A stretch of 64,000 nucleotides of DNA, taken from assembly GCF_001677475.2 (NCBI RefSeq), contig NZ_CP015229.1; one strand, written 5' to 3'. A program made the translations under genes and the position numbers. This document shows positions 42,380-62,118 of this stretch, piece after piece. Source of the DNA: Escherichia coli. GTDB lineage: Bacteria > Pseudomonadota > Gammaproteobacteria > Enterobacterales > Enterobacteriaceae. The notes beneath the pieces are model-generated. The model saw nothing but the letters and a program-made list of their open reading frames with translations, made no database searches and had not been told where the DNA came from. Numbering within the stretch: position 1 is the first letter of the stretch; each line of letters starts with the position of its first letter.

Positions 42380-42455
42380 GGCCCTTTAGCTCAGTGGTGA
42401 GAGCGAGCGACTCATAATCGCCAGGTCGCTGGTTCAAATCCAGCAAGGGCCACCA
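42380..42455 (+). tRNA. tRNA with CAT anticodon (Met or Ile2-lysidine; ileZ-like)
   Basis: 76 nt cloverleaf, anticodon loop CTCATAA, terminal CCA. Confidence 0.8.
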
Positions 42456-42554: not shown

Positions 42555-42631
42555 GCGTTGTTAGCTCAGTCGGACAGAGCAATTGCCTTCTAAGCAATCG
42601 GTCACTGGTTCGAATCCAGTACAACGCGCCA
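42555..42631 (+). tRNA. tRNA-Arg (anticodon TCT; argO-like)
   Basis: 77 nt, anticodon loop CTTCTAA, GGTTCGAATCC T-loop, terminal CCA. Confidence 0.8.
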
Positions 42632-45206: not shown

Positions 45207-45689
45207 ATGTCAGGACCTCCGAAAACCCCGCCACGCCTGCATTTGATACGAGGCAACCCCTCAAAGCGCCCCGTTAAAGACCACAAAAAAACCGCTAAAA
45301 AGGATGAAAAAGGTCTTCCTAAAATTCCGCAGCATTTAGGGGCTCAGGGGAAGTACTGGTTCAGGCGAATGGCGGAAGAGCTGAATGCGGAAGGGATCAT
45401 TTCTCAGCTTGATGCGCGTGCACTCGAGTTGCTGGTGGAAGCCTACACCGAATATCGGCATCACTGCGAAACACTCGATGTTGAGGGGTATACCTACCGC
45501 ACGGAAACGCAGAGCGGTGATGTACTGATTAAGGCGCACCCCGCGGCGGCAATGAAAGCGGATGCCTGGAAGCGGATCCGGGCAATGCTTGCAGAGTTTG
45601 GTATGTCACCGGCAAGCCGGGCTAAAGTAAATATCGCCGGACCGGATGATGTTGATCCGCTGGCGGAGCTTTTAAAAGCGAGAGACTGA
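45207..45689 (+). CDS. Terminase small subunit (P27-family-like)
   Basis: 160 aa; homologous to the satellite TerS at 59601. Confidence 0.7.
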   Translation: MSGPPKTPPRLHLIRGNPSKRPVKDHKKTAKKDEKGLPKIPQHLGAQGKYWFRRMAEELNAEGIISQLDARALELLVEAYTEYRHHCETLDVEGYTYRTETQSGDVLIKAHPAAAMKADAWKRIRAMLAEFGMSPASRAKVNIAGPDDVDPLAELLKARD

Positions 45690-46716
45690 TGGCAAAAGTG
45701 GCTGACGGGATCCGCTACGCCGAACGTGTTGTTGCAGGAGAAATTGTTGCTGGCGAATTTGTCCGCCTGGCCTGCCAGCGTTTTCTTGATGATCTGAAGT
45801 ACGGCGAAGAGCGGGGGATTTATTTCAGTGAACCCCGTGCGCAGCACATCCTGAATTTCTACAAATTTGTGCCTCATGTAAAAGGGGCGCTGGCAGGCCA
45901 GCCCATTGAGTTGATGGACTGGCATGTATTTATTCTCATTAATATTTTTGGTTTTGTCATTCCGCTGGTCAATGAAGAGACCGGGGAAGTTGTCATGCGC
46001 AGCGATGGCAGTGGACGTCCGGTGATGGTGCGCCGGTTCCGGACGGCGTACAACGAAGTCGCTCGTAAAAACGCAAAATCAACTCTGTCATCGGGTATCG
46101 GCCTGTATATGACGGGGGCAGATGGTGAAGGCGGAGCTGAGGTGTATTCAGCCGCAACCACGCGTGACCAGGCCAGAATCGTGTTTGAAGACGCCAAAAA
46201 TATGGTCAGAAAAGCCCGGTCGACACTCGGGCGGTTGTTTGATTTCAACAAGCTGGCGATTTACCAGGAGCAGAGCGCATCAAAATTTGAACCGCTTTCT
46301 TCGGATGCAAACAACCTAGACGGTCTGAACATCCACTGCGCCATTATTGATGAGCTGCATGCACATAAAACCCGCGACGTGTGGGACGTTCTGGAAACGG
46401 CAACCGGTGCCCGTCTGCAGTCCCTGTTATTTGGTATCACCACGGCGGGCTTTAACAAGGAAGGGATTTGTTACGAGCAACGCGATTACGCCATCAAGGT
46501 ATTGCGAGGCTATAACAGCGACGTGGAGGGCGCGGTAAAAGACGACTCCTACTTTGCGATTATTTACACGCTCGATGAGGGAGATGATCCGTTTGATGAA
46601 ACGGTCTGGCAGAAAGCGAATCCGGGCCTGGGCATCTGTAAACGCTGGGATGATCTGCGTCGTCTGGCGAAAAAAGCGAAGGAGCAGGTCTCGGCGCGGG
46701 TGAATTTTTTCACGAA
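45689..46716 (+). pseudogene. Prophage terminase large subunit, N-terminal ~343 codons, interrupted by satellite insertion
   Basis: Aligns with satellite TerL N-terminus (PHVKGA..G.PIEL..W); frame runs into unrelated satellite DNA and stops at 46882. Confidence 0.8.
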
Positions 46717-46845
46717 GAAAGTAACATCACGCCGTAACAACAGTGCAGTCTGTCCTGATTTTTTTAGTAACCAAATGAAAGAAAAAGATTTTTTCTTGTT
46801 CGTCGTTTTTGTTTTTTCTGGATGGTTCTGGCTGTTTTCATCATT

Positions 46846-46867
46846 TGTGTATTGCACTGTGTATTGC
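46846..46867. repeat. Tandem GTGTATTGC repeats near satellite left end
   Basis: tgtgtattgcactgtgtattgc; near-identical copy at 62023-62043. Confidence 0.6.
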
Positions 46868-46887
46868 AAAAACGGGTTATAAATCAC

Positions 46888-48111
46888 ATGGCGCTAAACA
46901 AACTGAGCGATAAAAAACTTCGTTCCCTGCTTGGACGCAGGAGTGAGAGACAGGAAACCATCGCTGATGGTAACGGGCTTTCGGTACGGGTCAGTAAATA
47001 CGGATGTGTTAGTTTTGTTTTCTTTTACAGACTGGCGGGAAGGGGAACCGCGCCCATCTGGCTGACACTTGGAAAATATCCTGATCTGAGTCTCAAATCA
47101 GCGAGAGAGATGCGCGATCAGTGTCGAACCTGGCTTGCGGAGGGCAGAGATCCACGGATTCAGATAAAAATTGAACGGGAAGCCACCTTGCAACCTGTTA
47201 CCGTTCGTGAGGCACTTGAATACTGGCTTGATAATTATGCAATGGATAAGCGTAGGGGAGCAGAACATATCAGGCAGTGCTTTGGTAAACATATTTATCC
47301 GGTGATTGGTCATGTACCACTTAGTGATTGCTCTATATCTATGTGGATTAAGTGTTTTGACAAAATAAAAAAAGTAGCACCTGTACAGGCCGGAGCTTTG
47401 TTGCGTATATCAAAACAGGCGCTTAAATTTTGTAGGGTAAGAAAATACGCGATTAGTCATGAAATTGATGATCTTGAGGTCTGTGATGTGGGAAAAAAGT
47501 CTGCGCGAAGAAGCAGGGTTTTAACAGATGATGAAATCAGAGATTTATGGCGAAGTATTAATACTGATTATGACAATCACGAATTATCATATGAAAACCG
47601 AATTATTTTACGTTTCCTGGTAGTTTTTGGTTGCCGACTGTCAGAAGTATTACTGTCGTCCTGGGGAGAGTGGGATTTTGATAAGAAATTATGGCGCGTT
47701 CCCGCTGAACATAGCAAAAATGGCAGGGAAATAATCAGACCGATTCCTGATGGCATGTTTAACTGGTTAGTTACGTTAAAAAAAATAACAGGTAACAAAG
47801 AAAATGTGATTGGGTTTGATATGCGTCAGTGTACGGCAAGCGTAACTATCGGTAAGACATGGAAAAGGATGAAACACTCGGAGAAATGGACGGCGCATGA
47901 TATGCGAAGAGTGTTTGCCACAAAACTAAGTGATCATGGTTTTGAACATAATGTGGTTGAACAGTTGCTTGGGCACACATTAGGCGGTGTTGCCGGGGTT
48001 TATAACAGAAGCCAGTATATGGACAGAAAAAAAGAAGCTATGAACTGGTGGTACGACTATCTGAATAAGCAAATTAGTGGTGACGGTAATGATTCAAATA
48101 GTTACGCGTGA
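46888..48111 (+). CDS. int: P4-type tyrosine integrase
   Basis: 407 aa from MALNKLSDKKLRSLLGRR..GLSVRVSKYG (typical P4-family N-terminus); HDMRRVFAT...LGH...Y. Confidence 0.85.
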   Translation: MALNKLSDKKLRSLLGRRSERQETIADGNGLSVRVSKYGCVSFVFFYRLAGRGTAPIWLTLGKYPDLSLKSAREMRDQCRTWLAEGRDPRIQIKIEREATLQPVTVREALEYWLDNYAMDKRRGAEHIRQCFGKHIYPVIGHVPLSDCSISMWIKCFDKIKKVAPVQAGALLRISKQALKFCRVRKYAISHEIDDLEVCDVGKKSARRSRVLTDDEIRDLWRSINTDYDNHELSYENRIILRFLVVFGCRLSEVLLSSWGEWDFDKKLWRVPAEHSKNGREIIRPIPDGMFNWLVTLKKITGNKENVIGFDMRQCTASVTIGKTWKRMKHSEKWTAHDMRRVFATKLSDHGFEHNVVEQLLGHTLGGVAGVYNRSQYMDRKKEAMNWWYDYLNKQISGDGNDSNSYA

Positions 48112-48142
48112 AGAACTTGAAAATGATAAAACAATCGACAGG

Positions 48143-48310
48143 ATGATTAAGGAAGATGAATGTGCATGGTTAACCGCTCTTGGCAGGAGACACAGATCGT
48201 TACTTGAAAAGGAAGGAAAATTTCCACGAAAAATATGTATTGGTCCACAAACAAAAGTCTGGCGCTTATCTGAGGTGCTGGAATGGGTAAAAGGTGAATG
48301 GAAACCCTGA
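48143..48310 (+). CDS. AlpA-family DNA-binding protein, copy 1
   Basis: ORF 48077-48310; start at the internal Met (MIKEDECAWLTALG...); LSEVLEWV. Confidence 0.6.
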   Translation: MIKEDECAWLTALGRRHRSLLEKEGKFPRKICIGPQTKVWRLSEVLEWVKGEWKP

Positions 48311-48333
48311 GCTAAATTAAATGAGATATAATC

Positions 48334-48357
48334 AACCCGTCTTTTGGCGGGTTTTTT
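48334..48357 (+). terminator. Intrinsic terminator
   Basis: aacccgtcttttggcgggttttttt. Confidence 0.6.
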
Positions 48358-48373
48358 TATAGGTGATATTTTT

Positions 48374-48652
48374 ATGCAAAAATTTATTTATCCTACACCC
48401 GAAGAACGCATTCAGATTCTGAAAGATCATGGCGAACCGTATGATCGCCGTATACGCGAACATGAGTGTGCCAATCGTACCGGGCTTTCAAGAAGCAGAC
48501 GTTGGGTACTTGAACAGGAGGGAGCATTTCCTGCTCGTGCTCATTTAGGGAAAGTGTCTGTTTCCTGGTTGCTCTCTGATGTGCTCTGGTGGGTTATGCA
48601 TCCGCCAGGAGTAAAGGAAGTAAACAGCCCATACAAAAACGCCAATAAGTAA
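48374..48652 (+). CDS. AlpA-family DNA-binding protein, copy 2
   Basis: From MQKFIYPTPEER; ECANRTGLSRSRRWVLEQEGAFPA. Confidence 0.6.
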   Translation: MQKFIYPTPEERIQILKDHGEPYDRRIREHECANRTGLSRSRRWVLEQEGAFPARAHLGKVSVSWLLSDVLWWVMHPPGVKEVNSPYKNANK

Positions 48653-48660
48653 TTACCGAC

Positions 48661-48690
48661 AACCCCGCACCACGCAATGCGGGGTTTTTT
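48661..48690 (+). terminator. Intrinsic terminator
   Basis: aaccccgcaccacgcaatgcggggtttttt. Confidence 0.65.
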
Positions 48691-48706
48691 GTATGTGAGG
48701 TAGAAA

Positions 48707-49303
48707 GTGATGAATAAAAATATTGCCGTGACGGGCAAGGGTGACGCACGTCATGTGAAAAAATTCTGTGATATTCGTGATCTGGTCGTTCTGCGCTTTG
48801 ATAGTGTGAACGTTCGCGTGGTGTATCTGAACGGCGATCCGTGGTTTGTTGGCGCTGATGTGTGTGCGGCGCTGGAAATTAGCAACGTTACCGATGCTGT
48901 TTCAGTTCTGGATAACGATGAGGTAATGACCCTAGCTTTAACCGAGGGTCATTCAGGTAAGCGTGGTGGTGCCAGAAGTTGGAATGTTGTATCAGAATCA
49001 GGTTTTTACAAGTTGATCGCCAGAAGTCGCAAAGCTGTTAATCCTGGCACGTTCGCCCATCGTTTCAGTAATTGGGTATTCAGAAATGTGATACCGGGTA
49101 TCAGAAAAACGGGGGCTTATGGTATCCCGTGGGGCGCATTACAGGATTTTTCCCGCCGCAAAGAGCAATATCAGGTAAGTGCCAGCGAGAAGGGGAGGGA
49201 GCTACAGGCATGTAAGCGCAAAAAGCGTGAGCTAGAGGAAGAAGAAAAAAGGCTGATACGTGAATATCAGCCTGAGTTTTACTTTGGTGAGCGTATTCAG
49301 TAA
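48707..49303 (+). CDS. Bro-N domain protein (antirepressor-like)
   Basis: 198 aa; N-terminal ...VYLNGDPWFVGADVCAALEISNVTDAVSVLDNDE. Confidence 0.6.
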   Translation: MMNKNIAVTGKGDARHVKKFCDIRDLVVLRFDSVNVRVVYLNGDPWFVGADVCAALEISNVTDAVSVLDNDEVMTLALTEGHSGKRGGARSWNVVSESGFYKLIARSRKAVNPGTFAHRFSNWVFRNVIPGIRKTGAYGIPWGALQDFSRRKEQYQVSASEKGRELQACKRKKRELEEEEKRLIREYQPEFYFGERIQ

Positions 49304-49915
49304 CCACACGCGGTGCTGATTATACGGTACATCGTGTTAACCGAGAAGCTACCCACCAGCAAGGCAAAATCTTCTGCTAAAAAATGACATATGGCCAGTC
49401 GTCTGGAAAGCATGAAATTTTACAAAAATGGAAAATGAAGATTTTTATTGTGCTGGTGGGTAAAAACAAAAAGCGCCCCGTTGCCGGAGCGCCCTTGCGA
49501 ACAATTAACCTACTGCGCAAAAAAATGAATCTGTGCAGGGGGATTATATCAACCGTGTGACGAAGCGCCACAATTGCCGGATAACAGGCAAAGAAAAGGC
49601 CACCCGCTACGGTGGCCCTTCGACACAAGCTACACGTTATCCCCAACGCATGAGCGTCGCCAACAATGCCACATTTGCGGCTGGTGGGCAATGTGATCAG
49701 TGTGCTGGCTTGCTGGTGGGCTATTCCTGCTCTTTGGCCTTGCGTTGCTTTAGTGCTGCACGAGCTAATCAATCATTGTATATGAGGCGTGGAATCTTTT
49801 TTTCATCACTCCTGCATACACGCTCATTACTGACGTGTTCATTGCTGATGCAATTTCCCAGGAGGAAAGCAAATAAAAACAAAGAGCCAAGCCAGTATAG
49901 TACTTGCTGCATAAG

Positions 49916-50101
49916 TTATTCCTTATCTGATTCTTTGGTTTTTTTCCGTTGGCGGCGTTTGATCTCGCCACGCATGGCTGCGCTTATAAACTGCCCTGTA
50001 CTTTCGCCATCTTCTTTCACGTTTTCCATGCCTTCAATAATTTCATGGGCAATACGTGCAGTTACAGATTGTGATTTTGCATTCTTTGGACCTGTTGCCA
50101 T
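49916..50101 (-). CDS. Small putative ribbon-helix-helix regulator
   Basis: 61 aa from MATGPKNAKSQSVTARIAHEIIEG; GAGGGG RBS; divergent from rightward operon. Confidence 0.4.
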   Translation of the reverse strand: MATGPKNAKSQSVTARIAHEIIEGMENVKEDGESTGQFISAAMRGEIKRRQRKKTKESDKE

Positions 50102-50122
50102 GTCTAACCCCTCATGTTTTTG

Positions 50123-50204
50123 GTGTAAGACAATATACACGAAAAAAAACTATTTTAAAGGGTTGACGTGTAAGACACTGTTGTTTTATGTTGTGTCTTA
50201 CACC
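50123..50204. promoter_or_regulatory. Candidate operator array: three GTGTAAGACA(C) sites
   Basis: Sites at 50123-50132, 50168-50178 and inverted 50194-50204 (11-bp palindrome, 15-bp spacer) overlapping a TTGACG -35-like hexamer. Confidence 0.5.
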
Positions 50205-50300
50205 TTGAGTGTTCAAGGTTCAGAAACTGCGAAGCCCGTAGGTGCCGCTAACACCCACAGGCTTCTAACCACCAACGATAGTAATAGTATCGAGGCAGCT

Positions 50301-50504
50301 ATGAGAAATCATACCACACACCCGCAAGGGCGGGACTCGCACAACCTGAATAAATACATCTGGCGTTTTATCGCCCTGAGCACGGCACAACCGCGCGTAA
50401 TTCACATCGTGGCCACCAGCGAACAGGAAGCGCGTCAGCAATCTCCTGATGGCTGCGTGATGGTATTCGCCGCCCGTATTCGTCAGGGGTCACATCATGC
50501 GTAA
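50301..50504 (+). CDS. Small Icd-like/Ash-family-like protein, copy 1 (tentative)
   Basis: C-terminal WRF...ATSEQEARQQ...VFAARIRQG motif shared with the next ORF. Confidence 0.35.
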   Translation: MRNHTTHPQGRDSHNLNKYIWRFIALSTAQPRVIHIVATSEQEARQQSPDGCVMVFAARIRQGSHHA

Positions 50505-50790
50505 AAACCGCTTGCAAAAAATTATCACGGGACTGTATGCTTCCCGCGTCACCCACATGGTGACCGGGTTTGACAGCCTGAATACTACAGCGGACAGCCG
50601 CTTACATTCCGATATGCGGTTTTTTTGTGTCCGTAAACCTACCCATACCCGCATTATGGCGGGGCGTAACGGGGGAGCCTTTGCGCTCGCTGGTTCCTGT
50701 AGTGCCAGTCTGTCAACCCTGTTACGTCTCGCCACCATGTTTGACAGCGTAGTAGCGAGACTCCTTAATTTCACTACAGGAGCCTTTCAC

Positions 50791-50964
50791 ATGGCTGTAT
50801 CCACACGCCCTTATTTTGTCTGGCGCTTCATGCAGTGCCATGAAAAACAAACCTCACTCTTTACCGTCACGGCTGCCACTGAGCGCGAAGCACGCGCGCA
50901 GCTGCCGCACGCACATCTGATTTTTGTCGCCCGTATCCGTCAGGGGGTAAACCATGTTCAGTAA
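50791..50964 (+). CDS. Small Icd-like/Ash-family-like protein, copy 2 (tentative; may extend upstream to 50497)
   Basis: C-terminal VWRF...AATEREARAQ...IFVARIRQG. Confidence 0.35.
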   Translation: MAVSTRPYFVWRFMQCHEKQTSLFTVTAATEREARAQLPHAHLIFVARIRQGVNHVQ

Positions 50965-51175
50965 CAACACACCGGACGCAGCCGCAAAAGCGTTAACCAC
51001 GCTGATGCACGCGCTGATTGATATTGAATGCACGGCAGAGCTTGCGCAGAACAAAGGGAAGGAAGATTACACCGCGTTCTGCCTGGAATGTATCCGCTAT
51101 ATTTCTTCCCGCTCTCTGGATGAGGCTAAAAATATTCTTATTGCTGATTGTGAAAATGGGGGGGGTTATGCGTGA
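50954..51175 (+). CDS. Hypothetical protein
   Basis: 73-aa ORF. Confidence 0.3.
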   Translation: MFSNNTPDAAAKALTTLMHALIDIECTAELAQNKGKEDYTAFCLECIRYISSRSLDEAKNILIADCENGGGYA

Positions 51176-51391
51176 TGATCGTTTTAATTCCCTGAAACAG
51201 GAATTTTCCGGCGTGCCTGATGATGCGGCTGATGCGCTTTCGTCAATATCTGAAATAATGAGGGCGGCTTTTTTTCTTTCTTTGCACTGATGAGCACAGG
51301 GATACAGGGTTAAATATTCTTGATATCGCCGCTAACTATGCTGACTTCGTAACGGAAGCAGCGTCAAGAAAAACAACGGGTGGGGATTAAT

Positions 51392-51625
51392 ATGCGTGAT
51401 ATTTACATTGAAACAATAGACCGCGTATTTCTTGCACTTTCTCACAGTGAAAACATGCTGGAAATATTACGCATATGGCTTGAAACGCTTGGAGATAATG
51501 AACGTGATAAACAGAAATCCAGAATTGCCACGGCATTAATAACGCTTCTTGAGCCTGTAATAAATGAGTTACAGGAAATAGAGACATTACACGACAGATA
51601 TAAAGAACAGCACACCGGAGAATAA
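51392..51625 (+). CDS. Hypothetical protein
   Basis: ORF 51380-51625, start at MRDIYIETID. Confidence 0.35.
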   Translation: MRDIYIETIDRVFLALSHSENMLEILRIWLETLGDNERDKQKSRIATALITLLEPVINELQEIETLHDRYKEQHTGE

Positions 51626-51630
51626 AAATA

Positions 51631-51930
51631 ATGAAACTTAAATATTCTGGCTTAACTGCCAGCGGCCCCGCTCGGCCTGAAATCCGTAACGGCGATATTT
51701 ACCGCGACCAGTACGGTGGCACGGTAATGATTAAGGGCGTGGCGGGACGGTGCGTTACCTACCGCCGTGAAGGTTACGAATATGACTGCGTGATGCCTGT
51801 TTATCAGTTCCGGCGTGATTTTTCTCTGGTACAGGCAGCGCAACGCGGTAAGCCCACCAGCAACGCCAGGGCACGTGCAAACATCCAGAAACTGAAAACC
51901 ATGATTAACGGATTCAGGGGTAAAAAATGA
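51631..51930 (+). CDS. Hypothetical protein
   Basis: 99-aa ORF upstream of the rep gene. Confidence 0.35.
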   Translation: MKLKYSGLTASGPARPEIRNGDIYRDQYGGTVMIKGVAGRCVTYRREGYEYDCVMPVYQFRRDFSLVQAAQRGKPTSNARARANIQKLKTMINGFRGKK

Positions 51931-53336
51931 AACTGGCACCGAACGTAAAACTATTACCGAAAGATAAGCACACAGAAGCGATTATTTTCGCGGGTGTTGA
52001 TGCTCACTCATTTGCAGAGCACTACATCATTGCACAGGCCAAAAAGGCGGGAGACCCGACGCCTCCCGTTTACCTGGGCCGTTATCAGTTAAGCGAACTG
52101 GATAACTTGCAGATTGTTGATGAGGGGCGGTACAGGGCGACAGTGATACGCGCCGGAAATATTGACGAAGCGCAGCTGCTAACCATCGCGACGAAACTGG
52201 CGATCGCCGGAGTCCAGGAAGCGCGGCTGCTTTCTGAAAATTTCGAATTGCTGGAGAAATGGACCGACCAGCTACCACGGTTGCGGGAGACATGGGAGAG
52301 AGGGGAAAGCCTGGTAATGGCAAAAAACCCCCAACGAAACACCACGCTACCGATGAGCGTTGGATCTGCCGGATACGACACGCAGCTGGATTACGTGGTT
52401 AAGGGCATTATTCCGGCGTCGTCGCTGTGCAGCATATACGGGGCGAGCGGTTCCTATAAATCATTCCTTGCGGGTTCGTGGGCGTGTCACGTTTCCACGG
52501 GCCGCCAGTGGGGAGGCCGCAGGGTTGCGCATGGTGCCGTTCTCTATGTGGTTGGTGAAGGCGGTATTGGTGTACCACGTCGTGTAAAAGCCTGGGAGGT
52601 TGTGCACGATGTACAGGTGAAAAATCTGTACCTGGTAAACCGCCCCGTCTTTCCGGCGGTCCCGCTTGATGTTGATGAAATGGTTATCGCTGCCCGTCAG
52701 GTGGAGCGGGAAACGGGTAAACCTGTACGCATGATTATTCTGGATACGCTGGCGCGTTGCTTTGGCGGCAATGATGAAAATGATTCCCGTGATATGGGGG
52801 CGTTTATCCGTGGGTGTGACGAACTGAAACGACGCACAGGGGCTACGGTGCTGGTGGTTCACCATTCCGGCAAGGATGAGACGAAAGGCGCGCGAGGTTC
52901 CAGTGCATTCCGTGCGTCACTGGATGCCGAATACCGGATACGCAGAGAGGACGCAGGAAGCGAGGCGCTGGTAATCTCATGTACCAAAATGAAGGACGCG
53001 GAGGAACTTAAAGAAGCCGCCTACGATTTGCGGGTGGTGGAGCTATTTACCGACGCTGACGGCGAATTAATTACGTCGCTGGTGGTGGTGGATAAGCCGC
53101 GTCCTCCCGTTGAACTGGAGCGCATCGAGGAGGCAGGCAACAAGACGGAAAACCATACCGCGTTATGGGGGTGCATCCGGTCGCGCACACAGAACGGTGA
53201 TAAGTGCACTATTGCGCTGTTACGTGACGATATGAAAAAGCTGGGGTATGAGATGAAGCACTTCAGCCGCTGGTTACGCAAGCTGGAAAAAGACGGGGTT
53301 ATTTATATCGACGGTGATGACGTAGGCACGCTGTAA
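51927..53336 (+). CDS. Replication protein: RepA-like RecA-fold helicase/ATPase with C-terminal DNA-binding region
   Basis: 469 aa; Walker A GASGSYKS, Walker B MIILD, HHSGKDETKGARGSSA; iterons immediately downstream. Confidence 0.7.
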   Translation: MKLAPNVKLLPKDKHTEAIIFAGVDAHSFAEHYIIAQAKKAGDPTPPVYLGRYQLSELDNLQIVDEGRYRATVIRAGNIDEAQLLTIATKLAIAGVQEARLLSENFELLEKWTDQLPRLRETWERGESLVMAKNPQRNTTLPMSVGSAGYDTQLDYVVKGIIPASSLCSIYGASGSYKSFLAGSWACHVSTGRQWGGRRVAHGAVLYVVGEGGIGVPRRVKAWEVVHDVQVKNLYLVNRPVFPAVPLDVDEMVIAARQVERETGKPVRMIILDTLARCFGGNDENDSRDMGAFIRGCDELKRRTGATVLVVHHSGKDETKGARGSSAFRASLDAEYRIRREDAGSEALVISCTKMKDAEELKEAAYDLRVVELFTDADGELITSLVVVDKPRPPVELERIEEAGNKTENHTALWGCIRSRTQNGDKCTIALLRDDMKKLGYEMKHFSRWLRKLEKDGVIYIDGDDVGTL

Positions 53337-53530
53337 AAAGTGGGGTGCAAAAGTGGGGAGAGTGAGCAAAACGCCCGAAAAACGCCATTATTCCCCACTT
53401 TTCAACGTATATATACCCAAAAAAGTGGGGAGTAAAAAAATCTTTATGAAACAGCACGATAAAAATCAAAAACTCCCCACCTGTAACGAGGTGGGGAAGT
53501 GTAAAAAGTGGGGCGCAAAAGTGGGGAGTG
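53336..53530. repeat. Iteron array, candidate satellite replication origin
   Basis: Eight or more copies of AAAGTGGGG / CCCCACTTT in both orientations within ~195 bp. Confidence 0.7.
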
Positions 53531-53786
53531 ATGGGGAAATGACCAGAATACGCAGAGACAGAACAGAGCCGAAATATAAAGCGTTAGACATGACAGAGCT
53601 TTCCTTAACGGTGGCAATCAAAGCGATAGACCGCCACACGCGGGAAGGATACGCGAAGGAACATCCCGAACTGATAAGCGCATTCATGGCCGCAGCGGCT
53701 GCAAACTTTGCCACGCTGACAGAACGGGAGACAGCCGAGGCAGAACAGGTAACAACCATCAACGTTAAAACCGGAGGGGTGGAATC

Positions 53787-54212
53787 ATGACGGCACAGAT
53801 AGCAGCTTACGGGCGGCTGGTGGAGGACCCGCAGGTAAAACAGACCAGCAAGGGAACACCCATGACGCTGGCGAGTATGGCGGTTCCCCTGCCATGCAGC
53901 CAGGCAGATGACGGAACGGCGACGATGTGGTTATCCGTCCTGGCGTTTGGCAGACAGGCCGACGCACTGGCAAAACACCGCAAAGGCGAACTGGTGAGCG
54001 TGGCGGGTAACATGCAGGTAAGCCAGTGGACAGGGCAGAACGGCGAAACGCGGCAGGGCTGGCAGGTTATTGCAGACAGCGTAATCAGTGCGCGAACGGC
54101 GCGACCGGGCGGCAAAAAAGGCCAACAGGGGCAGGCCACTGACGCACTGAACAGGGCAAAACAACAGACAGGCCAGCACGATGATCCGTACGGGGACGGG
54201 ATACCGTTTTAA
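53787..54212 (+). CDS. ssb: Single-stranded DNA-binding protein
   Basis: 141 aa; OB-fold-like N-terminus, Gly/Gln-rich linker, acidic tail ending DDPYGDGIPF. Confidence 0.7.
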   Translation: MTAQIAAYGRLVEDPQVKQTSKGTPMTLASMAVPLPCSQADDGTATMWLSVLAFGRQADALAKHRKGELVSVAGNMQVSQWTGQNGETRQGWQVIADSVISARTARPGGKKGQQGQATDALNRAKQQTGQHDDPYGDGIPF

Positions 54213-54227
54213 GCAGTGAGGTACAGC

Positions 54228-54509
54228 ATGATTAAAGACAGCAAAGCGGAAGAACTGGAGGCTAAAGGGCTGTACCGGAGAGCGGCGGCACGTTGGGCTG
54301 ATGTTATGTGGCTGGTGAGCACTGACAAGGAGCGCGAACAAGTGGCAAAGCGTCGCGCGGAATGTATCCGTAAGGCAGCACGCCCACCAGTCATACCGGA
54401 TAATTTCGGAATACTGAAAGAGGCCATAAACCGCACACATACCGGGATGGGCTTACAGAAGCCTGGCGGTGAGATGTTCAGGAACTACCCGAAAAAAGGG
54501 GATAATTGA
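54228..54509 (+). CDS. Hypothetical small basic protein (possibly PerC-like regulator; tentative)
   Basis: ORF 54216-54509; KGLYRRAAARWADVMW motif. Confidence 0.3.
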   Translation: MIKDSKAEELEAKGLYRRAAARWADVMWLVSTDKEREQVAKRRAECIRKAARPPVIPDNFGILKEAINRTHTGMGLQKPGGEMFRNYPKKGDN

Positions 54510-54554
54510 TAACGGTTGTTAACTGTTTCTGGTATCGTGGTAGCAGGAGGAAAC

Positions 54555-54803
54555 ATGCCAGTGACATTTGAAGAAGTCCAGCAACATAAAAAGCTTCATG
54601 GTTTTGATGATCTGGAAACCACGACAGCAAAAAAATATCGCCGGCTGCTTTCTTCCGATGCGTTATTTTTTGTGGATCATCATGATTTTCTGCGTAGCTC
54701 ACTGACCGGGGAAATTTTCGCAACCAACCGTGAGCAGGTGGAAGCGATGATCGAATATCTGTGGAAAATAAGGCGCAGAATGCGTGATCCCGTGAAACGG
54801 TAG
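54555..54803 (+). CDS. Hypothetical protein
   Basis: ORF 54516-54803, start at MPVTFEEVQQ. Confidence 0.35.
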   Translation: MPVTFEEVQQHKKLHGFDDLETTTAKKYRRLLSSDALFFVDHHDFLRSSLTGEIFATNREQVEAMIEYLWKIRRRMRDPVKR

Positions 54804-54811
54804 AATAATAA

Positions 54812-54842
54812 TGGCCTGGTATTTTCCAGGCCATTTTTTTTT
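54812..54842 (+). terminator. Intrinsic terminator
   Basis: ggcctggtattttccaggcc followed by T-run. Confidence 0.7.
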
Positions 54843-55314
54843 AGAAGTCGATCTCTGTATCGCGATTAAATTCATCGCTAAGGTAAAGTGCTTCGCTTGG
54901 GCATTTTCCGTTTTCCAGTAATGTTTCCCAGAAATCTTTATCGAAACACCCCTCAAGATACAGATAGCGGCAGATGTGAAGTAAATCACTTCGTGTCCAT
55001 CCGTGCATGCTGCTACTTGTTACACCATATTCACTTTCTAGTTTATAGAATGTGAGCGCCTCCCGGTCGTGCCAGGCTTTGCACAGACGATCGTATATCT
55101 TTTTAGCTTTGTTTTTAGATGTGCCGAAAAACTCTTCGTAAATTTCATGTGGGCGAGTAGGAATACTTCCGTCGCCATCCTGCAAGAAAGGATAAACATC
55201 TGCCTCCCAGGCATACACGTAAGAATCGCTGAACTCATCATAGTGTTTACCAAGGTGGAGAATCTGCAATCGTTGCTGAATGAACATTGCTTTTTTCAGT
55301 TCATTTTCTGACAT
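54841..55314 (-). CDS. Hypothetical 157-aa protein on the opposite strand (candidate accessory/cargo gene)
   Basis: Only minus-strand gene within the replication-packaging span; no family recognised. Confidence 0.5.
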   Translation of the reverse strand: MSENELKKAMFIQQRLQILHLGKHYDEFSDSYVYAWEADVYPFLQDGDGSIPTRPHEIYEEFFGTSKNKAKKIYDRLCKAWHDREALTFYKLESEYGVTSSSMHGWTRSDLLHICRYLYLEGCFDKDFWETLLENGKCPSEALYLSDEFNRDTEIDF

Positions 55315-55608
55315 AGTTCGTTCCTCCTGATTAACGAGCAGAAAATGTACGGAACAGCTTATTTATTTTTTCAGGTTTTGTAAGTTATTTGTTCGTGGTT
55401 GTTCCAGGTTGTTCGGTGATTCTGGCTGATGTTTACATACTGATTTTTATGTATATGTTGGCGTGTGGCACTCAGACGTGAGCCGCCACAATGCCGCCTG
55501 ACCCCCTGCGCGATGCCGGGTTGATCTGCGAGATGCCGAGAGTGTCGGGCGGCGCTCCCTCCGTGTTGGTTTCACGTCCTGAATCTTAACCAATACGAGA
55601 AAACCTTC

Positions 55609-56754
55609 ATGAAGAAATTAATCGAACTCCGCCAGCAAAAAACCGCCCTGAAAAACCAGATGCGATCCCTGCTGGAAAAAGCCGACAGTGAAAACCGCAG
55701 CCTGAACGATGACGAAGGCAAACAGTTTGATGAACTGCGTGCAAAAGCCGATTCCCTCGACACAGAAATCTCCCGTCTTGAAGCTGTTGCGGATGAAGAA
55801 CGTAACCAGCCAGGTGTTTGCGTCGAAGAGAAAATTACCAAAGACGAACTGCGCTCTTACATTCTGACCGGGGAAACCCGCAACCTGTCCGGCAGTGTTC
55901 CGGCTGATGGTGGTTATACGGTTATCCCGGAACTGAACAGAGAAATTATGCGTCAGCTTTCTGATGAATCGGTGATGCGTAAAATCTGTACTGTTAAAAC
56001 CATTCACAGCAATGAATTTAAGCAACTGGTTTCTGCCGGGGGCGCGGTCGTTGAACACGGTGAAGAAGGCACTACACGTAACCAGACGGCAACCCCAAAA
56101 CTGAATGAAGTCAGTATCCGCCTGTATCCGATCTACGCTTACCCGAAAACCACTCAGGAAATTATCGATTTTTCCGAAGTCGATATTATGGGCTGGTTAT
56201 CTTCTGAAATTGGCGACACTTTCGTTGATACCGAAGAAACGGATCTGGTTTCTGGTGATGGCGAGAAAAAAGCTAAAGGTTTCCTGGCTTTTCCGCGCAC
56301 TGAGGATAACGACAAAACCCGTCCTTTCGGTACGCTCCAGACGAAAAAAGTTACTGGCAGTCTTAGCGCCGACATGCTGATTGACCTGAAATTTACGCTG
56401 CGCAATAAGTACCGCAAAAAAGCTGTATGGGTGATGAACTCAAATACAGCCGCCTCCGCACAAAAACTGAAAAATGCCACTGGTGATTACATCTGGCGCG
56501 ATCGTTTACAGGCTGGTGATCCTGATTCTCTGCTGGGGCTTCCGGTTGAATATCTGGAATTTATGCCGGACGGTGTGATTGCAGTAGGTGACTTTAAGCG
56601 CGGTTATTTCATCGTTGACCATGAAACCGGTACGCGTACCCGTCCGGATTTCAGCGAACCTGGATTCATTAACATCTATACCCAGAAATATCTGGGCGGT
56701 GGTGTGGTGGATTCGAACGCCATCAAGATTCTGGAAATTCAGGCTGGCAAGTAA
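55609..56754 (+). CDS. Major capsid protein (HK97 fold)
   Basis: 381 aa; N-terminal coiled-coil delta region; hairpin after stop. Confidence 0.8.
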   Translation: MKKLIELRQQKTALKNQMRSLLEKADSENRSLNDDEGKQFDELRAKADSLDTEISRLEAVADEERNQPGVCVEEKITKDELRSYILTGETRNLSGSVPADGGYTVIPELNREIMRQLSDESVMRKICTVKTIHSNEFKQLVSAGGAVVEHGEEGTTRNQTATPKLNEVSIRLYPIYAYPKTTQEIIDFSEVDIMGWLSSEIGDTFVDTEETDLVSGDGEKKAKGFLAFPRTEDNDKTRPFGTLQTKKVTGSLSADMLIDLKFTLRNKYRKKAVWVMNSNTAASAQKLKNATGDYIWRDRLQAGDPDSLLGLPVEYLEFMPDGVIAVGDFKRGYFIVDHETGTRTRPDFSEPGFINIYTQKYLGGGVVDSNAIKILEIQAGK

Positions 56755-56803
56755 TGAGCAAAGGGGGCTTCGGCCTCCTTTTTCAGCTTTATGGAGTACA
56801 CCG

Positions 56804-57364
56804 ATGAAAAACACCGATTTTGAAATCCGTACATCTGAACTGACCGCCAGCGATAAAAAACTGGTGGGTTATGCCGTTCGCTGGAACAGCCTTTCAGAAA
56901 TTATTTGGGACGAATTCCGCGAACAGTTCACGCCGGGGGCTTTTGCTGACTATCTGGCGGCGGGTAATGATGTGCGCTGCCTGTATGAGCATGACTATAC
57001 CCGACTGCTGGGGCGCACCAAATCCGGAACACTGGTACTGACTGAGGACAACACCGGGCTACGTTTTGAACTGACACCGCCTGATACCCAGCTTGGAAAA
57101 GATGTGCTTACGCTGGTGGAGCGTGGCGACATTACAGGAATGAGCTTTGGCTTTCGCGCATTATGCGAAGAGTGGAATATCGCGCAAAAACCGTATCTGC
57201 GCACTGTTACCGCCGCAGAACTCCGTGAAATCACGATAACGTCGATGCCTGCTTATCCCGAATCTGGCGTGGAGATTGCCCACCGTTCGTTGTTTGCACA
57301 GCACCCTGAATTACGCCCGGCAGGAAATAATCGTCATCGCTGGGCTGAACTGGCGGGGTTGTGA
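56804..57364 (+). CDS. Prohead maturation protease (HK97 family)
   Basis: 186 aa from MKNTDFEIRTSELTASDKKLVGYAVRWNS. Confidence 0.75.
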   Translation: MKNTDFEIRTSELTASDKKLVGYAVRWNSLSEIIWDEFREQFTPGAFADYLAAGNDVRCLYEHDYTRLLGRTKSGTLVLTEDNTGLRFELTPPDTQLGKDVLTLVERGDITGMSFGFRALCEEWNIAQKPYLRTVTAAELREITITSMPAYPESGVEIAHRSLFAQHPELRPAGNNRHRWAELAGL

Positions 57365-57365
57365 T

Positions 57366-58580
57366 ATGTGGTGGCCTTTTAGTCGTAAAAAAAGCGATCT
57401 GCGTAACCTGTCCATTGATGATTTTCTGGCGCTGTCCGGCGTACCGAATACCGGATCCGGAGAATATGTTTCTGCCGGGACGGCTGAATCATTGCCTGCT
57501 GTGATGAACGCGGTTTCTGTCATCGCTGAGGCGGTGGCCACGATGCCGTGTTATCTGTATCTGGTACGCAATGATAAGGGCAGGGAGGCGCGGGAGTGGC
57601 TGGACAGTCATCCGGTCGATATTCTGCTGAATGAGCAGCCTAATTCGTGCCAGACACCTTACCAGTTTAAACGCACAATGATGCGTCACTGCCTGCTGAA
57701 CGGTAACGCCTATGCGGTTATTGAGTGGGGGCGGGACGGTCAGCCAAAATCACTTCATCCTTATGCGCCGGGGTGTGTTGTACCGGAACGCACTGGCGCG
57801 CACAAATACCGCTATACCATCACCGAACCCTATACAGGAACGGTGCGCACGTATTTACAGGAAGAAGTCCTGCATCTCCGCTATGCCTCGGATGATGGCT
57901 TTCTGGGACGTTCCCCCGTCACGATTTGCCGTGAGGCGCTGGGGCTTGGCCTTGCTCAACAGCGTCACGGAGCCAGCATTATGAAAGATGGCATGATGGC
58001 GGCAGGGATTATCACGTCAGGCGAATGGCTGGACGGTGTGAAAGGTAAACAGGCATTAGACGCCCTGGAACGCTACAAGGGGGCGAAAAATGCCGGAAAA
58101 ACGCCAATCCTTGAAGGGGGCATGGATTACAAGCAACTGGGGATGAGTAACCAGGATGCGGAATGGCTGGCCTCCCGTCGCTTCTCCATTGAAGACATCG
58201 CCCGGATGTTCAACGTGTCGCCGATTTTTCTTCAGGAATACAGCAACAGCACCTACAGCAATTTCAGTGAGGCAAGCCGCGCGTTTCTGACCATGACAAT
58301 GCGCCCATGGCTGGCGAACTTCGAACAGCAAATTAAGGCCGCTTTGCTGGTGGCTTCTCCCGTACCTGGTACCCGTTATCTGGTTGAGTTTGATTCAGCC
58401 GATTTACTGCGCGCTACTCCAACCGAGCGTTACGCCACGTATGAGAAAGGGATTAAGAACGGGATCATGAATCCGAACGAAGCCCGCGAACGTGAGGGGA
58501 TGCCGCCGCGTGAAGGTGGCGACGAATTCAGCCAGGCATGGAAGCAGACGGTGGAAATTAAAGGTGAAAAAGATGAGTGA
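57366..58580 (+). CDS. Portal protein (HK97 family)
   Basis: 404 aa from MWWPFSRKK; homologous to the prophage portal at 63049. Confidence 0.8.
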   Translation: MWWPFSRKKSDLRNLSIDDFLALSGVPNTGSGEYVSAGTAESLPAVMNAVSVIAEAVATMPCYLYLVRNDKGREAREWLDSHPVDILLNEQPNSCQTPYQFKRTMMRHCLLNGNAYAVIEWGRDGQPKSLHPYAPGCVVPERTGAHKYRYTITEPYTGTVRTYLQEEVLHLRYASDDGFLGRSPVTICREALGLGLAQQRHGASIMKDGMMAAGIITSGEWLDGVKGKQALDALERYKGAKNAGKTPILEGGMDYKQLGMSNQDAEWLASRRFSIEDIARMFNVSPIFLQEYSNSTYSNFSEASRAFLTMTMRPWLANFEQQIKAALLVASPVPGTRYLVEFDSADLLRATPTERYATYEKGIKNGIMNPNEAREREGMPPREGGDEFSQAWKQTVEIKGEKDE

Positions 58581-58872
58581 AGAAAAAATTACACCTGATG
58601 AAGTCAGGGCACATCTTCGCCTTGATGACTTTTCCGGAGAGGGCGAACTTCTGAAAATGTATACCGATGCGGCGCTGGAAGCCTGCCAGAAGCATATCGG
58701 GAAACGTTTTGAAGACGGCCTGGAATTTACCCCGGCAATACGTGTTGGTTGCCTGATGTACATTGCTTTCCTGTACGAGAACAGGGAAGCGGTTTCACCT
58801 GTGGAGCAGTCTGAACTGCCTATGGCTATTTCTGCGCTCTGGTCGGTTTATCGTGATGTGGGGGTGTACTGA
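58573..58872 (+). CDS. Head-tail connector/adaptor (gp6-like)
   Basis: 99 aa from MSEEKITPDEVRAHLRLDDFSGEGELL. Confidence 0.6.
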   Translation: MSEEKITPDEVRAHLRLDDFSGEGELLKMYTDAALEACQKHIGKRFEDGLEFTPAIRVGCLMYIAFLYENREAVSPVEQSELPMAISALWSVYRDVGVY

Positions 58873-59312
58873 TGCCGTGGCAACCATTAAGGCGATGCAC
58901 TGAGCCGGGCTGTAATAAGCGCGTGAAGTCCGGCAAGTGTGAAGAGCACAGGCGGGCTGCATGGCGTGCAGAGGATGCCAGACGGGGACACCGCCGCGCG
59001 CGCGGGTATTCCCGACAGTGGGACAAATACCGCGCCCTGTACCTGAGCAAAAACCCGTTATGCGTGCGTTGTCTGGCTAAGGGGATTTATACGCCAGCTC
59101 TTGTGGTGGATCACATCATTCCCATCAATGGCGGCGGTGATGTTCTCTTCTGGCCTGAGTGGAACCACCAGGCATTGTGCCAGACGTGCCACAACCGTAA
59201 GACGACACGGGAAGACCCAGCCACGAAAGCGAACCGTAAGGCGGGCATGTATCGCGAGCAGGAAGAACGGGCGGCACACCGTAACGACTGGATGTATGGC
59301 GATGATGACTGA
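58872..59312 (+). CDS. HNH endonuclease (terminase-associated)
   Basis: 146 aa; CVRCL...VDHIIPINGGG...CQTCHNRKT. Confidence 0.75.
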   Translation: MPWQPLRRCTEPGCNKRVKSGKCEEHRRAAWRAEDARRGHRRARGYSRQWDKYRALYLSKNPLCVRCLAKGIYTPALVVDHIIPINGGGDVLFWPEWNHQALCQTCHNRKTTREDPATKANRKAGMYREQEERAAHRNDWMYGDDD

Positions 59313-59481
59313 ACATGAGCAAAACAGGCTGATACGTGGACTGATAAGGCAACGTGACTTATGGAAGACACAGGAGACAGGGCACAAAGCCAACAGGACA
59401 GGGCGCACAGAACGCACCACAGCGAAGCGATTAACCGACCGTGACCGCGAGGTCATGGAATGTTTTCGCAATCGCTGGTGA
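59302..59481 (+). CDS. Hypothetical small basic protein
   Basis: ~59 aa Arg-rich ORF between HNH and terS. Confidence 0.3.
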   Translation: MMTEHEQNRLIRGLIRQRDLWKTQETGHKANRTGRTERTTAKRLTDRDREVMECFRNRW

Positions 59482-59600
59482 GGCTGTCAGAGGGGGTGGG
59501 GGAGGTTTTCAGGACGAAACCGTCCCTGCCGGACACCGACCGCCTCCTCAAATTTTTGTGCACGGTAATTTTTTTGAAAATAATTGGGCGAAAAAAGAAC

Positions 59601-59957
59601 ATGGCAAGACCACCAAAAGCCCCCGCTTACCTGGATGAAATCGCGGTCAGGCAGTGGAAGGAAAAATCGCGCCAGCTTTCCGTGCGGGAAGACCTTACCC
59701 CCGCCGACTGGAGCAATCTGGAACTGTATTGTGTTAACTACTCCATATACCGCAAAGCCGTCGAAGACCTTGCGACGCGCGGGTTCAGCATTGTTAACAG
59801 TCAGGGCAGCGAGAGCAGAAACCCCGCCCTGAGCGCAAAGGCTGACGCGGAAAGAATAATGATCAAAATGGCTTCTTTGCTGGGTTTTGACCCGGTAAGC
59901 CGCCGCAGAAATCCACCGGAAACAGAGGAAGAGGACGAGCTTGACCGCCTGGCATGA
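59601..59957 (+). CDS. Terminase small subunit (P27-family-like)
   Basis: From MARPPKAPAYLDEIAV; same M-x-x-PPK-xP start as prophage TerS. Confidence 0.7.
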   Translation: MARPPKAPAYLDEIAVRQWKEKSRQLSVREDLTPADWSNLELYCVNYSIYRKAVEDLATRGFSIVNSQGSESRNPALSAKADAERIMIKMASLLGFDPVSRRRNPPETEEEDELDRLA

Positions 59958-61602: not shown

Positions 61603-61681
61603 CGGAATGGATGAGAGAGGACAATGCTCATTTAATGGAATAAATTTTCAGTATTACCGGCACCCACTTTCAGGGATGTTT

Positions 61682-61837
61682 TTGCGGGTTATTTGAGGGG
61701 TGTTTGCGGGTTATTTTGAATGTCTTGCGGGTTACATTCTGGCTGATATTTAAATACGTTGTTTTTTTAACGTATTGATATTAAAGAGTAAAAGATAATT
61801 AGCACGCGAAGATAACCCGCTAACCCGCATAACCCGC
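61682..61837. repeat. Symmetric repeat array near satellite right end
   Basis: Three direct TTGCGGGTTA and three inverted TAACCCGC copies flanking an AT-rich palindrome (aatacgtt...aacgtatt). Confidence 0.6.
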
Positions 61838-62022
61838 ACTGTTTTGTATATATATACGAAAAATTGCATTCAGGGGGGATCGAAATTTCTACTGCCTCTT
61901 ATCTCTTTGAGTGCTCACCTCGTCAGATTGTTACACACAAGAAATAAAAAATGCTTCGCGATGGTAGGTCGAATCACTGTATCAAAAAACGGTGTGTATC
62001 AGCATTAAAACAATACAGATAC

Positions 62023-62043
62023 GTGTATTGCGCTGTGTATTGC
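62023..62043. repeat. Tandem GTGTATTGC repeats near satellite right end
   Basis: gtgtattgcgctgtgtattgc, matching 46846-46867. Confidence 0.6.
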
Positions 62044-62118
62044 TCGATGATTTATAAAGACTGTTTTTTCATGTTAAACGATTGATATACAGACGATTTT
62101 AAAAAGCTTGAAATATTC

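Follow-up and report, generated by a model that had tools for sequence, protein, structure and literature searches.

Features of the locus

A stretch of 64,000 nt from an Escherichia coli genome (assembly GCF_001677475.2, contig NZ_CP015229.1), hereafter called the window, was analysed with the focus on positions 50301 to 50964, which lie in the regulatory region of a satellite of the phage-inducible chromosomal island (PICI) type that is inserted in a prophage. An original prediction, made from the letters of the sequence, had described two adjacent small genes with near-identical C-terminal ends and two AlpA-like genes in tandem, and had taken them as duplicated regulators that provide layered or helper-specific control. 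The features found here support a different reading, which is judged probable: the region would be a module for immunity and early control, composed of two successive units of the eta/kil type of phage P4, carried by a helper-embedded, capsid-forming PICI and equipped with a translational override. The features of the central part of the locus are as follows (positions are those of the window).

50301..50504, + strand: icd-1, 67 aa, with its own Shine-Dalgarno (SD) sequence (GAGG); NF033153 at 71.8 bits
50497..50964, + strand: eta-like long open reading frame (ORF), 155 aa, which reads through the C4 cassette in frame into icd-2
50512..50541, + strand: candidate internal promoter Pc4, TTGCAA-18-TATGCT, near P1c4/P51b of phage P1
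50535..50626, + strand: leader with a1 (50570-50576, TTGACAG) and b1 (50584-50590, ACTACAG); an isrK-like hairpin and a U7 run come next
50652..50739, + strand: C4-type antisense RNA, Rfam RF01695 (clan CL00128) at 72.3 bits (gathering score 45), full-length match 1-87
50696-50704 and 50710-50716, + strand: recognition parts of C4, b' loop CCTGTAGTG and a' CTGTCAA, assigned by complementarity
50741..50782, + strand: downstream targets a2 (50741-50747, TTGACAG) and b2 (50772-50781, CACTACAGGA), assigned from inverted repeats
50791..50964, + strand: icd-2, 57 aa, nested at the 3' end of the 155-aa ORF; NF033153 at 55 bits

The two small genes belong to the Icd/Kil family

Both small genes matched NF033153, the NCBIfam model 'host cell division inhibitor Icd-like' with a curated cutoff of 25 bits, as did the complete 155-aa ORF (50497-50964; 51.4 bits), in which the similarity to Icd-1 is restricted to the last 57 codons, starting from the ATG at 50791. 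The Icd-1 protein and the Icd-2 domain were 40% identical over 48 aa (BLASTP, E 8e-12), and a 39-nt repeat common to both icd 3' ends (50461-50499 and 50918-50956) was 77% identical, so that the likeness of the two C-terminal ends seen in the original prediction is real and the alignment of the paralogs significant. The Kil protein of P4 matched the same model with 76.1 bits, and the Icd protein of P1 is annotated in the family. Purifying selection was evident for both genes, with a synonymous fraction of 0.67 among 55 intact alleles of icd-1 and of 0.66 for icd-2. The AlphaFold2 model of Icd-1 had the order beta-beta-alpha-beta with a mean pLDDT of 77 and about 90 in the core, and neither a helix-turn-helix, a ribbon-helix-helix nor any other DNA-binding motif was found in the small predicted fold; a sequence search of the PDB with Icd-1 gave no match. 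Both genes are therefore assigned, on sequence grounds, to the Icd/Kil family and not to the regulators. P1 Icd is described as a cell-division inhibitor in the note of the P1 record, and P4 Kil as a cell-killing protein in PMC10111431; by family membership, the Icd domains of the window would inhibit division or kill the host cell.

The Icd pair does not represent a local tandem duplication, because Icd-2 is closer to P1 Icd (53% identity) than to Icd-1 (40%) and because the cassette together with icd-2 was present in only 7 of the 82 loci with a near-identical icd-1. These 82 loci comprise 80 from the search, the window and E. coli SCU-171, all with an Icd-1 that is at least 91% identical. 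In the remaining 75 loci icd-1 is directly followed by orf73, orf81, DUF4222 and repA. The part of the original prediction that regarded the small genes as duplicated regulators was consequently given up on account of their family and of the affinity of Icd-2 to P1 Icd.

A C4 antisense RNA cassette lies between the Icd domains

A full RNA immunity cassette of the P1/P4 type was found between the two Icd domains, within the first 294 nt of the second ORF. By homology to P1, whose C4 RNA has a length of 77 nt, the mature C4 was placed at about 50658-50736. The annotated a1, 77-nt C4 and a2 of P1 mapped cleanly onto the window and b1 was assigned by position; b2 was placed by complementarity, as the P1 alignment is shifted there. 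In the region 50562-50749 the DNA identity amounted to 80% to the c4 region of P1, 82% to that of phage D6 and 75% to that of phage P7. According to the repeat analysis a' can pair with a1 and a2, and the b' loop with b1 and b2, so that C4 is complementary to an upstream and to a downstream target pair, the latter reaching the ribosome binding site (RBS) of icd-2, which is the arrangement that characterizes C4 systems. The b2 element overlaps the SD sequence AGGAG of icd-2 (50778-50782), located 8 nt before the ATG. The predicted fold of the leader had a z of -3.97. In the alignment with P1 the -10 element of Pc4 was offset by 3 nt and the -35 element by 6 nt from the annotated P1c4/P51b, and the candidate promoter was conserved in relatives.

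No second C4-like RNA was detected 5' of icd-1 in Rfam E-value scans, and 16 of 17 cluster representatives of the icd-1 loci were devoid of any C4. Apart from b' and b2 there was no other perfect b target in the 64-kb window including the helper prophage. The architecture of the cassette was present in 123 complete E. coli genomes at a coverage of at least 80%. From these data icd-2 is assigned to a P1/P4-type antisense-RNA immunity cassette, in which the C4 RNA would be the actual regulator between the Icd domains. By analogy to P1, processing would yield a stable C4 RNA of about 77 nt with a repressing effect in trans.

Specificity alleles of the cassettes

In order to collect related cassettes, IMG/VR was scanned with a pattern for the conserved 5' stem of C4, which yielded 73 distinct cassettes of the P1 type. 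Among the 54 distinct related cassettes that were parsed, 19 b alleles (14 in satellites and 5 in phages) and two a alleles were recognized, and no b allele was common to satellites and phages. The b' loop was complementary to b1 and b2 over at least 7 nt in every parsed cassette (6 nt in one case), and a' was complementary to a1 and a2 over 7 nt in all 54. The window, P1, D6 and P7 differ from one another in the b allele, with matching changes at b1, b' and b2, and each carries one of the two a alleles. Because the loops co-vary with their targets in all 54 cassettes, the RNA-RNA recognition can be regarded as functional and under diversifying selection, for which this covariation is strong evidence at the level of sequence.

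A long frame is kept open through the cassette of satellites

The ATG at 50497 overlaps the stop codon of icd-1 (ATGCGTAA) and is preceded at a distance of 7 nt by the SD sequence AGGGG (50485-50489), which is supplied by the conserved C-terminal codons of Icd (...RIRQG). The same overlap junction connects icd-2 with orf73, the first cistron downstream, and orf73 with the next small ORF. Every icd-1 allele kept the SD-N7-ATGnnTRA junction, whatever gene comes next, and the 3' end of P1 icd likewise carries an SD sequence and the overlapping start of ant1; a note in the P1 record states that icd is 'apparently required for expression of ant'. The near-identical C-terminal motif highlighted in the original prediction is therefore read as a translational-coupling junction.

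From the start at 50497 the frame passes in an open state through the internal promoter candidate, the leader, the C4 gene and the targets. For comparison with the other cassettes, a frame was counted as open if the icd frame was open for at least 290 nt upstream, i.e. over the whole cassette. This was the case in 35 of 36 cassettes with satellite-type icd versus 1 of 35 phage cassettes of the P1/P7/D6 type, a contrast that overstates its statistical strength, the related sequences not being independent, and that counts to this extent against the scheme proposed below. As a control, the other two frames close within 12-90 nt. In one satellite lineage a +1 and a -1 indel occurred about 20 nt apart, by which the frame was restored, and the 14 b alleles of satellites were exchanged at three sites each without a stop arising in the long frame. 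An upstream icd whose stop codon overlaps the start of the long ORF, with the same geometry of 8 nt, was present in 27 of the 36 satellite cassettes. In public data, proteins of 150-156 aa formed at least 120 clusters, and among the top 150 representatives of the family, which had a median ORF length of 234 aa, the Icd domain was C-terminal in 128, with two Icd domains in nine.

The 98 codons 5' of icd-2 had a synonymous fraction of 0.19-0.38 with substitutions distributed evenly over the codon positions, and hence no selection at the amino-acid level. A frame that is kept while its peptide is not conserved therefore fits a role in ribosome transit rather than a product. The ORF starts 5' of the internal promoter candidate, spans the RNA and its targets and ends as an Icd protein, which is the design of eta/kil in P4; by analogy to P4, the long frame may serve the translational override of C4.

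The view of the ORF as a pure artefact that merely extends across an RNA gene was rejected in view of the 35 open satellite frames and the same design of P4 eta. The 'frameshifted' call by PGAP in SCU-171 was not accepted as support for an artefact, as this assembly is also frameshifted in the genes of RepA, SSB and PerC.

Stacking of units was seen again in E. coli A19 (NZ_CP028756, 2886-3957), whose tandem array contains three Icd-like genes and two C4 RNAs that differ from each other. There icd-1 is truncated after ...EQEARQ and continues in frame into a cassette of the P4 type (Phage_ASH), and a cassette of the window type comes next.

The upstream unit with icd-1

The region 5' of icd-1 comprises the following features.

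49533..50504, + strand: long frame of 323 codons ending in icd-1, which runs through P_R, the operators and the 5'-untranslated region (5'-UTR), antisense to the ylcI-like gene
49916..50101, - strand: divergent small gene of the YlcI/YnfO family, 61 aa; NF041551 at 64.5 bits
50122..50203: divergent promoter region with three operators GTGTAAGACA(C) at 50122-50132, 50168-50178 and, inverted, 50193-50203
50159-50132, - strand: candidate promoter P_L, from the repeat and promoter analysis
-35 TTGACG 50163-50168 and -10 TATGTT 50187-50192, + strand: candidate promoter P_R, 18-nt spacer, 9/12 consensus positions

Across 80 loci with 28 protein variants, each variant of the YlcI-like protein was associated one-to-one with an operator sequence. 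The YlcI-like protein is therefore likely a repressor of P_R and P_L, of the ribbon-helix-helix type, with GTGTAAGACAC as its putative operators, and the pairing of YlcI/YnfO proteins with operators suggests that they form a family of small repressors whose specificity can be switched. The gene icd-1 would be the first cistron of transcripts from the candidate P_R.

The icd-1 frame is open from 49509 to 50504, i.e. about 790 nt 5' of icd-1. Zero stops over 750 nt were counted for this frame in 46 of 68 distinct relatives, and for the other two frames in none of the 68. Where relatives carry only one alpA, a strong SD sequence and an ATG located 9-10 nt after the alpA stop form the start of the frame, as is the case for vis-eta of P4. 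The ORF at 49533-50504 is accordingly a candidate for the eta-like ORF of the first unit, and its translation is uncertain in the window.

The leader of icd-1 (50202-50298), for which three hairpins were predicted (z -3.5), matched no Rfam family; its element CTTCTAACCACCAACGATAG was retained in almost every locus examined despite differing promoter modules. On the minus strand, an ORF for a hydrophobic protein of 47 aa (49769-49912), for which no family match was obtained, is located 3' of the ylcI-like gene; a terminator-like hairpin in leftward orientation (about 49623-49590) comes after it.

The AlpA pair

The two AlpA genes and their terminator-like structures are located upstream of the module.

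48089..48310, + strand: alpA1, short AlpA paralog; PF05930 at 36 bits, phrog_2790 at 50.8 bits (partial match)
48334..48360, + strand: terminator-like hairpin (48334-48353) with T-run after alpA1
48374..48652, + strand: alpA2, 92 aa, canonical AlpA of the PICI/P4 Vis type; PF05930 at 39.4 bits, phrog_2790 at 118.5 bits (full length)
48661..48692, + strand: terminator-like hairpin (48661-48686) with T-run after alpA2

The start of alpA1 at 48089 (73 aa) was adopted from PGAP in a 99.5%-identical relative, whereas the original prediction had used 48143; with this start the gene overlaps the stop of int by 23 nt. Both proteins exceeded the cutoff of PF05930 (Phage_AlpA, 21 bits) and matched phrog_2790 ('excisionase and transcriptional regulator'), and they were 48% identical over 48 aa (E 1e-12). 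The tandem of AlpA-like genes, each with its own hairpin and T-run, was thus confirmed together with the significance of their alignment. AlpA2 shared 55-60% identity with the lone AlpA of other PICIs and 32% identity with P4 Vis over 71 aa; a sequence search of the PDB with AlpA2 returned only spurious haemagglutinin matches.

Two alpA genes were present in all nine loci with an integrase of the window type. With integrases that are 35-50% identical, one alpA was found, which is nearer to alpA2 (43/43), and with more distant integrases none (28/28). Of 5,426 complete E. coli genomes, 35 contained the module int-alpA1-alpA2, in each case as a whole and with an identity of 95% or more. From their sequences and distribution the AlpA proteins are classified as genuine regulator/excisionase paralogs that are linked to the integrase module and independent of the Icd pair. 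Since alpA is required for the induction of the capsid-forming PICI (cf-PICI) EcCIEDL933, a model element (10.1101/2022.09.08.507074), alpA2 may be the activator needed for PICI induction, and alpA1, which overlaps the int stop, is probably the excisionase (recombination directionality factor) of the window-type integrase.

Proposed mode of action and alternative explanations

In the reading judged probable above, the first unit would consist of P_R with three YlcI-type operators, the structured leader and icd-1, and the second unit would be a P1-type immI cassette that recombined in at the 3' end of icd, with the order Pc4, decoy a1/b1, hairpin and U-run, C4, a2/b2 over the RBS of icd-2, and icd-2. 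In the quiescent state, transcripts from Pc4 would yield C4, whose b' and a' would pair with b2 and a2 and block the translation of icd-2, and by polarity the translationally coupled replication operon would be kept silent; a satellite that enters the cell with the same a/b type would be silenced by this C4 as well. Upon induction, upstream transcription from P_R, driven by AlpA, or originating from late read-through of the helper would supply ribosomes that end at icd-1, re-initiate at the overlapping ATG 50497 and cross the cassette in frame into icd-2. The crossing ribosomes would bypass both the C4 block and termination, as eta translation does in P4, and the replication operon would be switched on, while the Icd domains would hold back cell division during satellite replication. 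In the integration module, alpA1 would act as excisionase and alpA2 as PICI activator.

Several observations weigh against this scheme. The window has ATA at the position of the start ATG of the relatives, which was lost because the bro gene intervenes, and the long frame 5' of icd-1 has no convincing start codon. The internal promoter candidate Pc4 agrees with the consensus at 8 of 12 positions and falls below the threshold of the promoter scan. In a permissive scan, the Rfam matches to c4-a1b1 (50535-50584; 42.1 bits, E 1.9e-8, gathering score 46.7) and isrK (50548-50626; 33.7 bits, gathering score 50) both remained under the gathering scores. No terminator was predicted 3' of b2, and therefore the termination step would need Rho. 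In P1-like phages the same cassette operates although no long ORF is present, and the frame is therefore not needed for the function of C4 itself. The division of labour suggested for AlpA1 and AlpA2 is derived from linkage.

In one alternative the 155-aa ORF is a chance frame, with only icd-2 being translated, icd-1 being an unrelated neighbour and the module corresponding to P1 immI without any override. This explanation is unlikely, even though P1, P7 and D6 manage without a frame of this kind, neither protein-level selection nor a Pfam match was seen in the 98 upstream codons, and icd-2 possesses a good SD sequence of its own, the target of C4. It does not account for the difference in open frames between satellites and phages at a DNA identity of about 80% between the groups, for the 14 replacements of the b allele without a stop and the compensated frameshift, for the conservation of the ATGnnTAA overlap with its SD sequence, or for the C-terminal position of the Icd domain in most representatives; moreover, the nested design is reported to be experimentally established for eta/kil of P4 (PMC10111431). 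It is far less probable that the cassette and icd-2 form a decaying recombination scar from a P1-like phage with no present function. The presence of the cassette in a minority of the icd-1 loci and the recombination junctions inside icd would agree with a scar, but C4 scored far above the gathering score, the a/b complementarity shows no mismatch at any site, purifying selection acts on icd-2, the architecture recurs in 27 or more distinct variants of satellites and in the 123 complete E. coli genomes, and the b alleles of satellites are diverse with none common to phage cassettes. This possibility was accordingly given hardly any weight.

The reading of the original prediction, in which tandem duplicated regulators and two AlpA proteins exert redundant or helper-specific transcriptional control, was considered very improbable. 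It could draw on the label 'transcriptional repressor' that PHROGs assign to the best-matching Icd families (PHROGs 6196 and 1743), on the location of the genes in a regulatory zone next to operators, and on the fact that the AlpA family includes regulators. The label, however, was most likely inherited from an old protein reading of the cI RNA locus of P4, for which the ORF over the CI RNA is still called 'cI gene product, transcriptional repressor' in the P4 record (NC_001609, 8168-8584), though the immunity factor of P4 is an RNA. In addition, P1 Icd and not Icd-1 is the closer relative of Icd-2, the cassette is missing in 75 of the 82 icd-1 loci, and the operators co-vary with the YlcI-like protein and not with Icd. 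The idea of layered control nevertheless holds in outline, as AlpA, the YlcI/YnfO protein with its operators and the C4 RNA amount to at least three layers; what does not hold is the role of the small genes as regulators.

Beyond the module of two units, a more general and more tentative proposal, less likely to be correct than not, concerns the Icd-like genes of enterobacterial satellites as 3' ends of stackable 'lock units' that would be joined head to tail by SD-ATGnnTAA junctions, which the conserved C-terminus of Icd encodes. Each lock unit would keep a frame open for ribosome transit and enclose an internal promoter together with one immunity determinant, this being a repressor gene that is embedded in antisense orientation and has its own operators, or else a C4 RNA and its target sites. 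Recombination inside icd would add, remove or swap units, and translation arriving from the AlpA-driven transcript upstream would open all of them at once; the window would then contain two units and E. coli A19 three. If this proposal is true, lock units would give combinatorial immunity types from 2 a alleles, at least 14 b alleles and at least 10 operator types.

The reading of the region as an immunity module corrects a misreading, in that databases label the ORFs as repressor or plain protein while the immunity factor would be an RNA inside one of them; PGAP names the long ORFs 'Icd-like' or 'ash family' and leaves the RNA gene unmarked. It suggests that the RNA-immunity logic of P4 and P1 is widely reused in PICI-type satellites, and that here the cassette would guard the replication operon of a satellite located inside the terminase gene of its helper. 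The a/b allele series constitutes a natural set of orthogonal antisense RNA-target pairs and gives a testable model of mutual exclusion among satellites, and the satellite-specific frames offer a clean test case for translation as the override signal of an RNA-based immunity.

Relation to the immunity systems of P4 and P1

The arrangement resembles that of P4 in the AlpA-family gene located upstream and the replication genes located downstream. In P4 an internal promoter (PLE) is combined with a regulated upstream promoter (PLL); in the window, Pc4 and P_R would be the candidate counterparts. The eta gene of P4 has 199 codons, spans c4-a1b1, isrK and C4, and its last 65 codons are Kil. According to PMC10111431, this nested eta/kil design is experimentally established, and translation of eta from the upstream promoter prevents the immunity-dependent termination, which is credited there to Forti et al. 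1999. The differences concern four points. The N-terminal part of P4 eta corresponds to the Pfam family Phage_ASH, whereas the cassette of the window is of the P1 sequence type without a Phage_ASH match and with no Pfam match in the 98 upstream codons. The long ORF of the window is coupled to an extra complete icd and not directly to alpA, its upstream unit is under a putative protein repressor with operators instead of an RNA, and its replication protein is of the RepA/AAA_25 type and not the alpha primase of P4.

With immI of P1, P7 and D6 the window shares the order a1, b1, C4, a2, b2/SD, icd and a DNA identity of 75-82% from a1 to a2, and it has the a' allele of P1 and D6. The phage b alleles, in contrast, are absent from satellites, and the phages lack the in-frame long ORF. 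The immI operon of P1 is defined by c4-icd-ant under C1 operators; the window has no C1 operator, its icd is shorter (57 vs 73 aa), and the gated genes are those for satellite replication, with no antirepressor downstream. The module of the window would work like immI but is not an immI operon.

The satellite element and its genomic setting

Further genes of the satellite are listed below.

46888..48111, + strand: tyrosine integrase of the satellite, directly after the truncated terL; start from the PGAP call in E. coli UMNF18
48710..49303, + strand: Bro-N domain gene; PF02498 at 61 bits
50954..51175, + strand: orf73, first cistron after icd-2, with an ATG that overlaps the icd-2 stop and the SD sequence GGGGG

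The satellite spans about 46710-62125 of the window (about 15.4 kb) and interrupts the gene terL of the prophage, which encodes the large terminase subunit (TerL), the halves being located at 45689-46716 and 62112-62855. Joining of the halves at the 7-bp core TCACGAA (46710 and 62119) resulted in a TerL of 585 aa, which was 99.5% identical to that of phage phi467 across the full length. Beside int, alpA and rep the element encodes Phage_capsid, Peptidase_S78, Phage_portal, HNH, Terminase_4 (the small terminase subunit, TerS) and TerL according to Pfam, and with its own capsid, protease, portal and both terminase subunits it has the gene content that characterizes cf-PICIs. It also lies co-oriented inside a late gene of a prophage, and the gene was restored by the sequence equivalent of a precise excision, as expected of an HE-PICI, the helper-embedded kind of PICI. 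The element is accordingly classified from its sequence as a helper-embedded, capsid-forming PICI in the terL gene of a prophage.

The location within a prophage late gene and the co-orientation are shared with HE-PICIs of the A:Terminase_1:245 site group, such as Eco567.11capE, and so is the division into Integration, Bro, Replication and Late zones (PMC10111431). The same paper names the Terminase_1 site and reports that the Rfam families C4 and isrK match several HE-PICIs; as far as the available text extends, its account of HE-PICIs does not include tandem icd genes, cassette stacking, a/b alleles, a satellite-specific frame or tandem alpA genes. EcCIEDL933 is similar to the element in its size of about 15.4 kb and in carrying int, alpA and rep together with capsid, protease, portal, HNH, TerS and TerL. 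Elements of the EDL933 type differ in using chromosomal attB sites (10.1101/2022.09.08.507074), whereas the element of the window is located in prophage terL, and EcCIEDL933 differs from it in that the latter has two alpA genes and a C4 cassette. All building blocks have known counterparts in P4, P1 and HE-PICIs. The following appear to be undescribed in the available text of the related literature: the additional icd with its coupling, cassette stacking, the frames specific to satellites and the a/b allele series.

The integrase has a 99.5%-identical relative of 407 aa in UMNF18, annotated as 'tyrosine-type recombinase/integrase', and the UMNF18 element is also located within a truncated terL, but with a single icd and without C4. 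Downstream of icd-2, orf73 opens a chain of coupled small ORFs that leads via orf81 to DUF4222 (51631-51930) and the gene of a RepA-like helicase (51927-53336); among these genes there was no Ant.

Just 3' of the RepA-like gene a 54-nt direct repeat (53332-53385 and 53500-53553) was observed, which is 78% identical, rich in AAAAGTGGGG and a candidate for replication-origin iterons. Near the right end of the satellite, repeats of the GCGGGTTAT type together with inverted ATAACCCGC repeats (61678-61716 and 61815-61840) are candidate arm-type sites of the integrase or a candidate packaging site. Two tRNA genes (42380-42452 and 42555-42628) are located in the part of the window that belongs to the prophage, 5' of its lysis and packaging genes.

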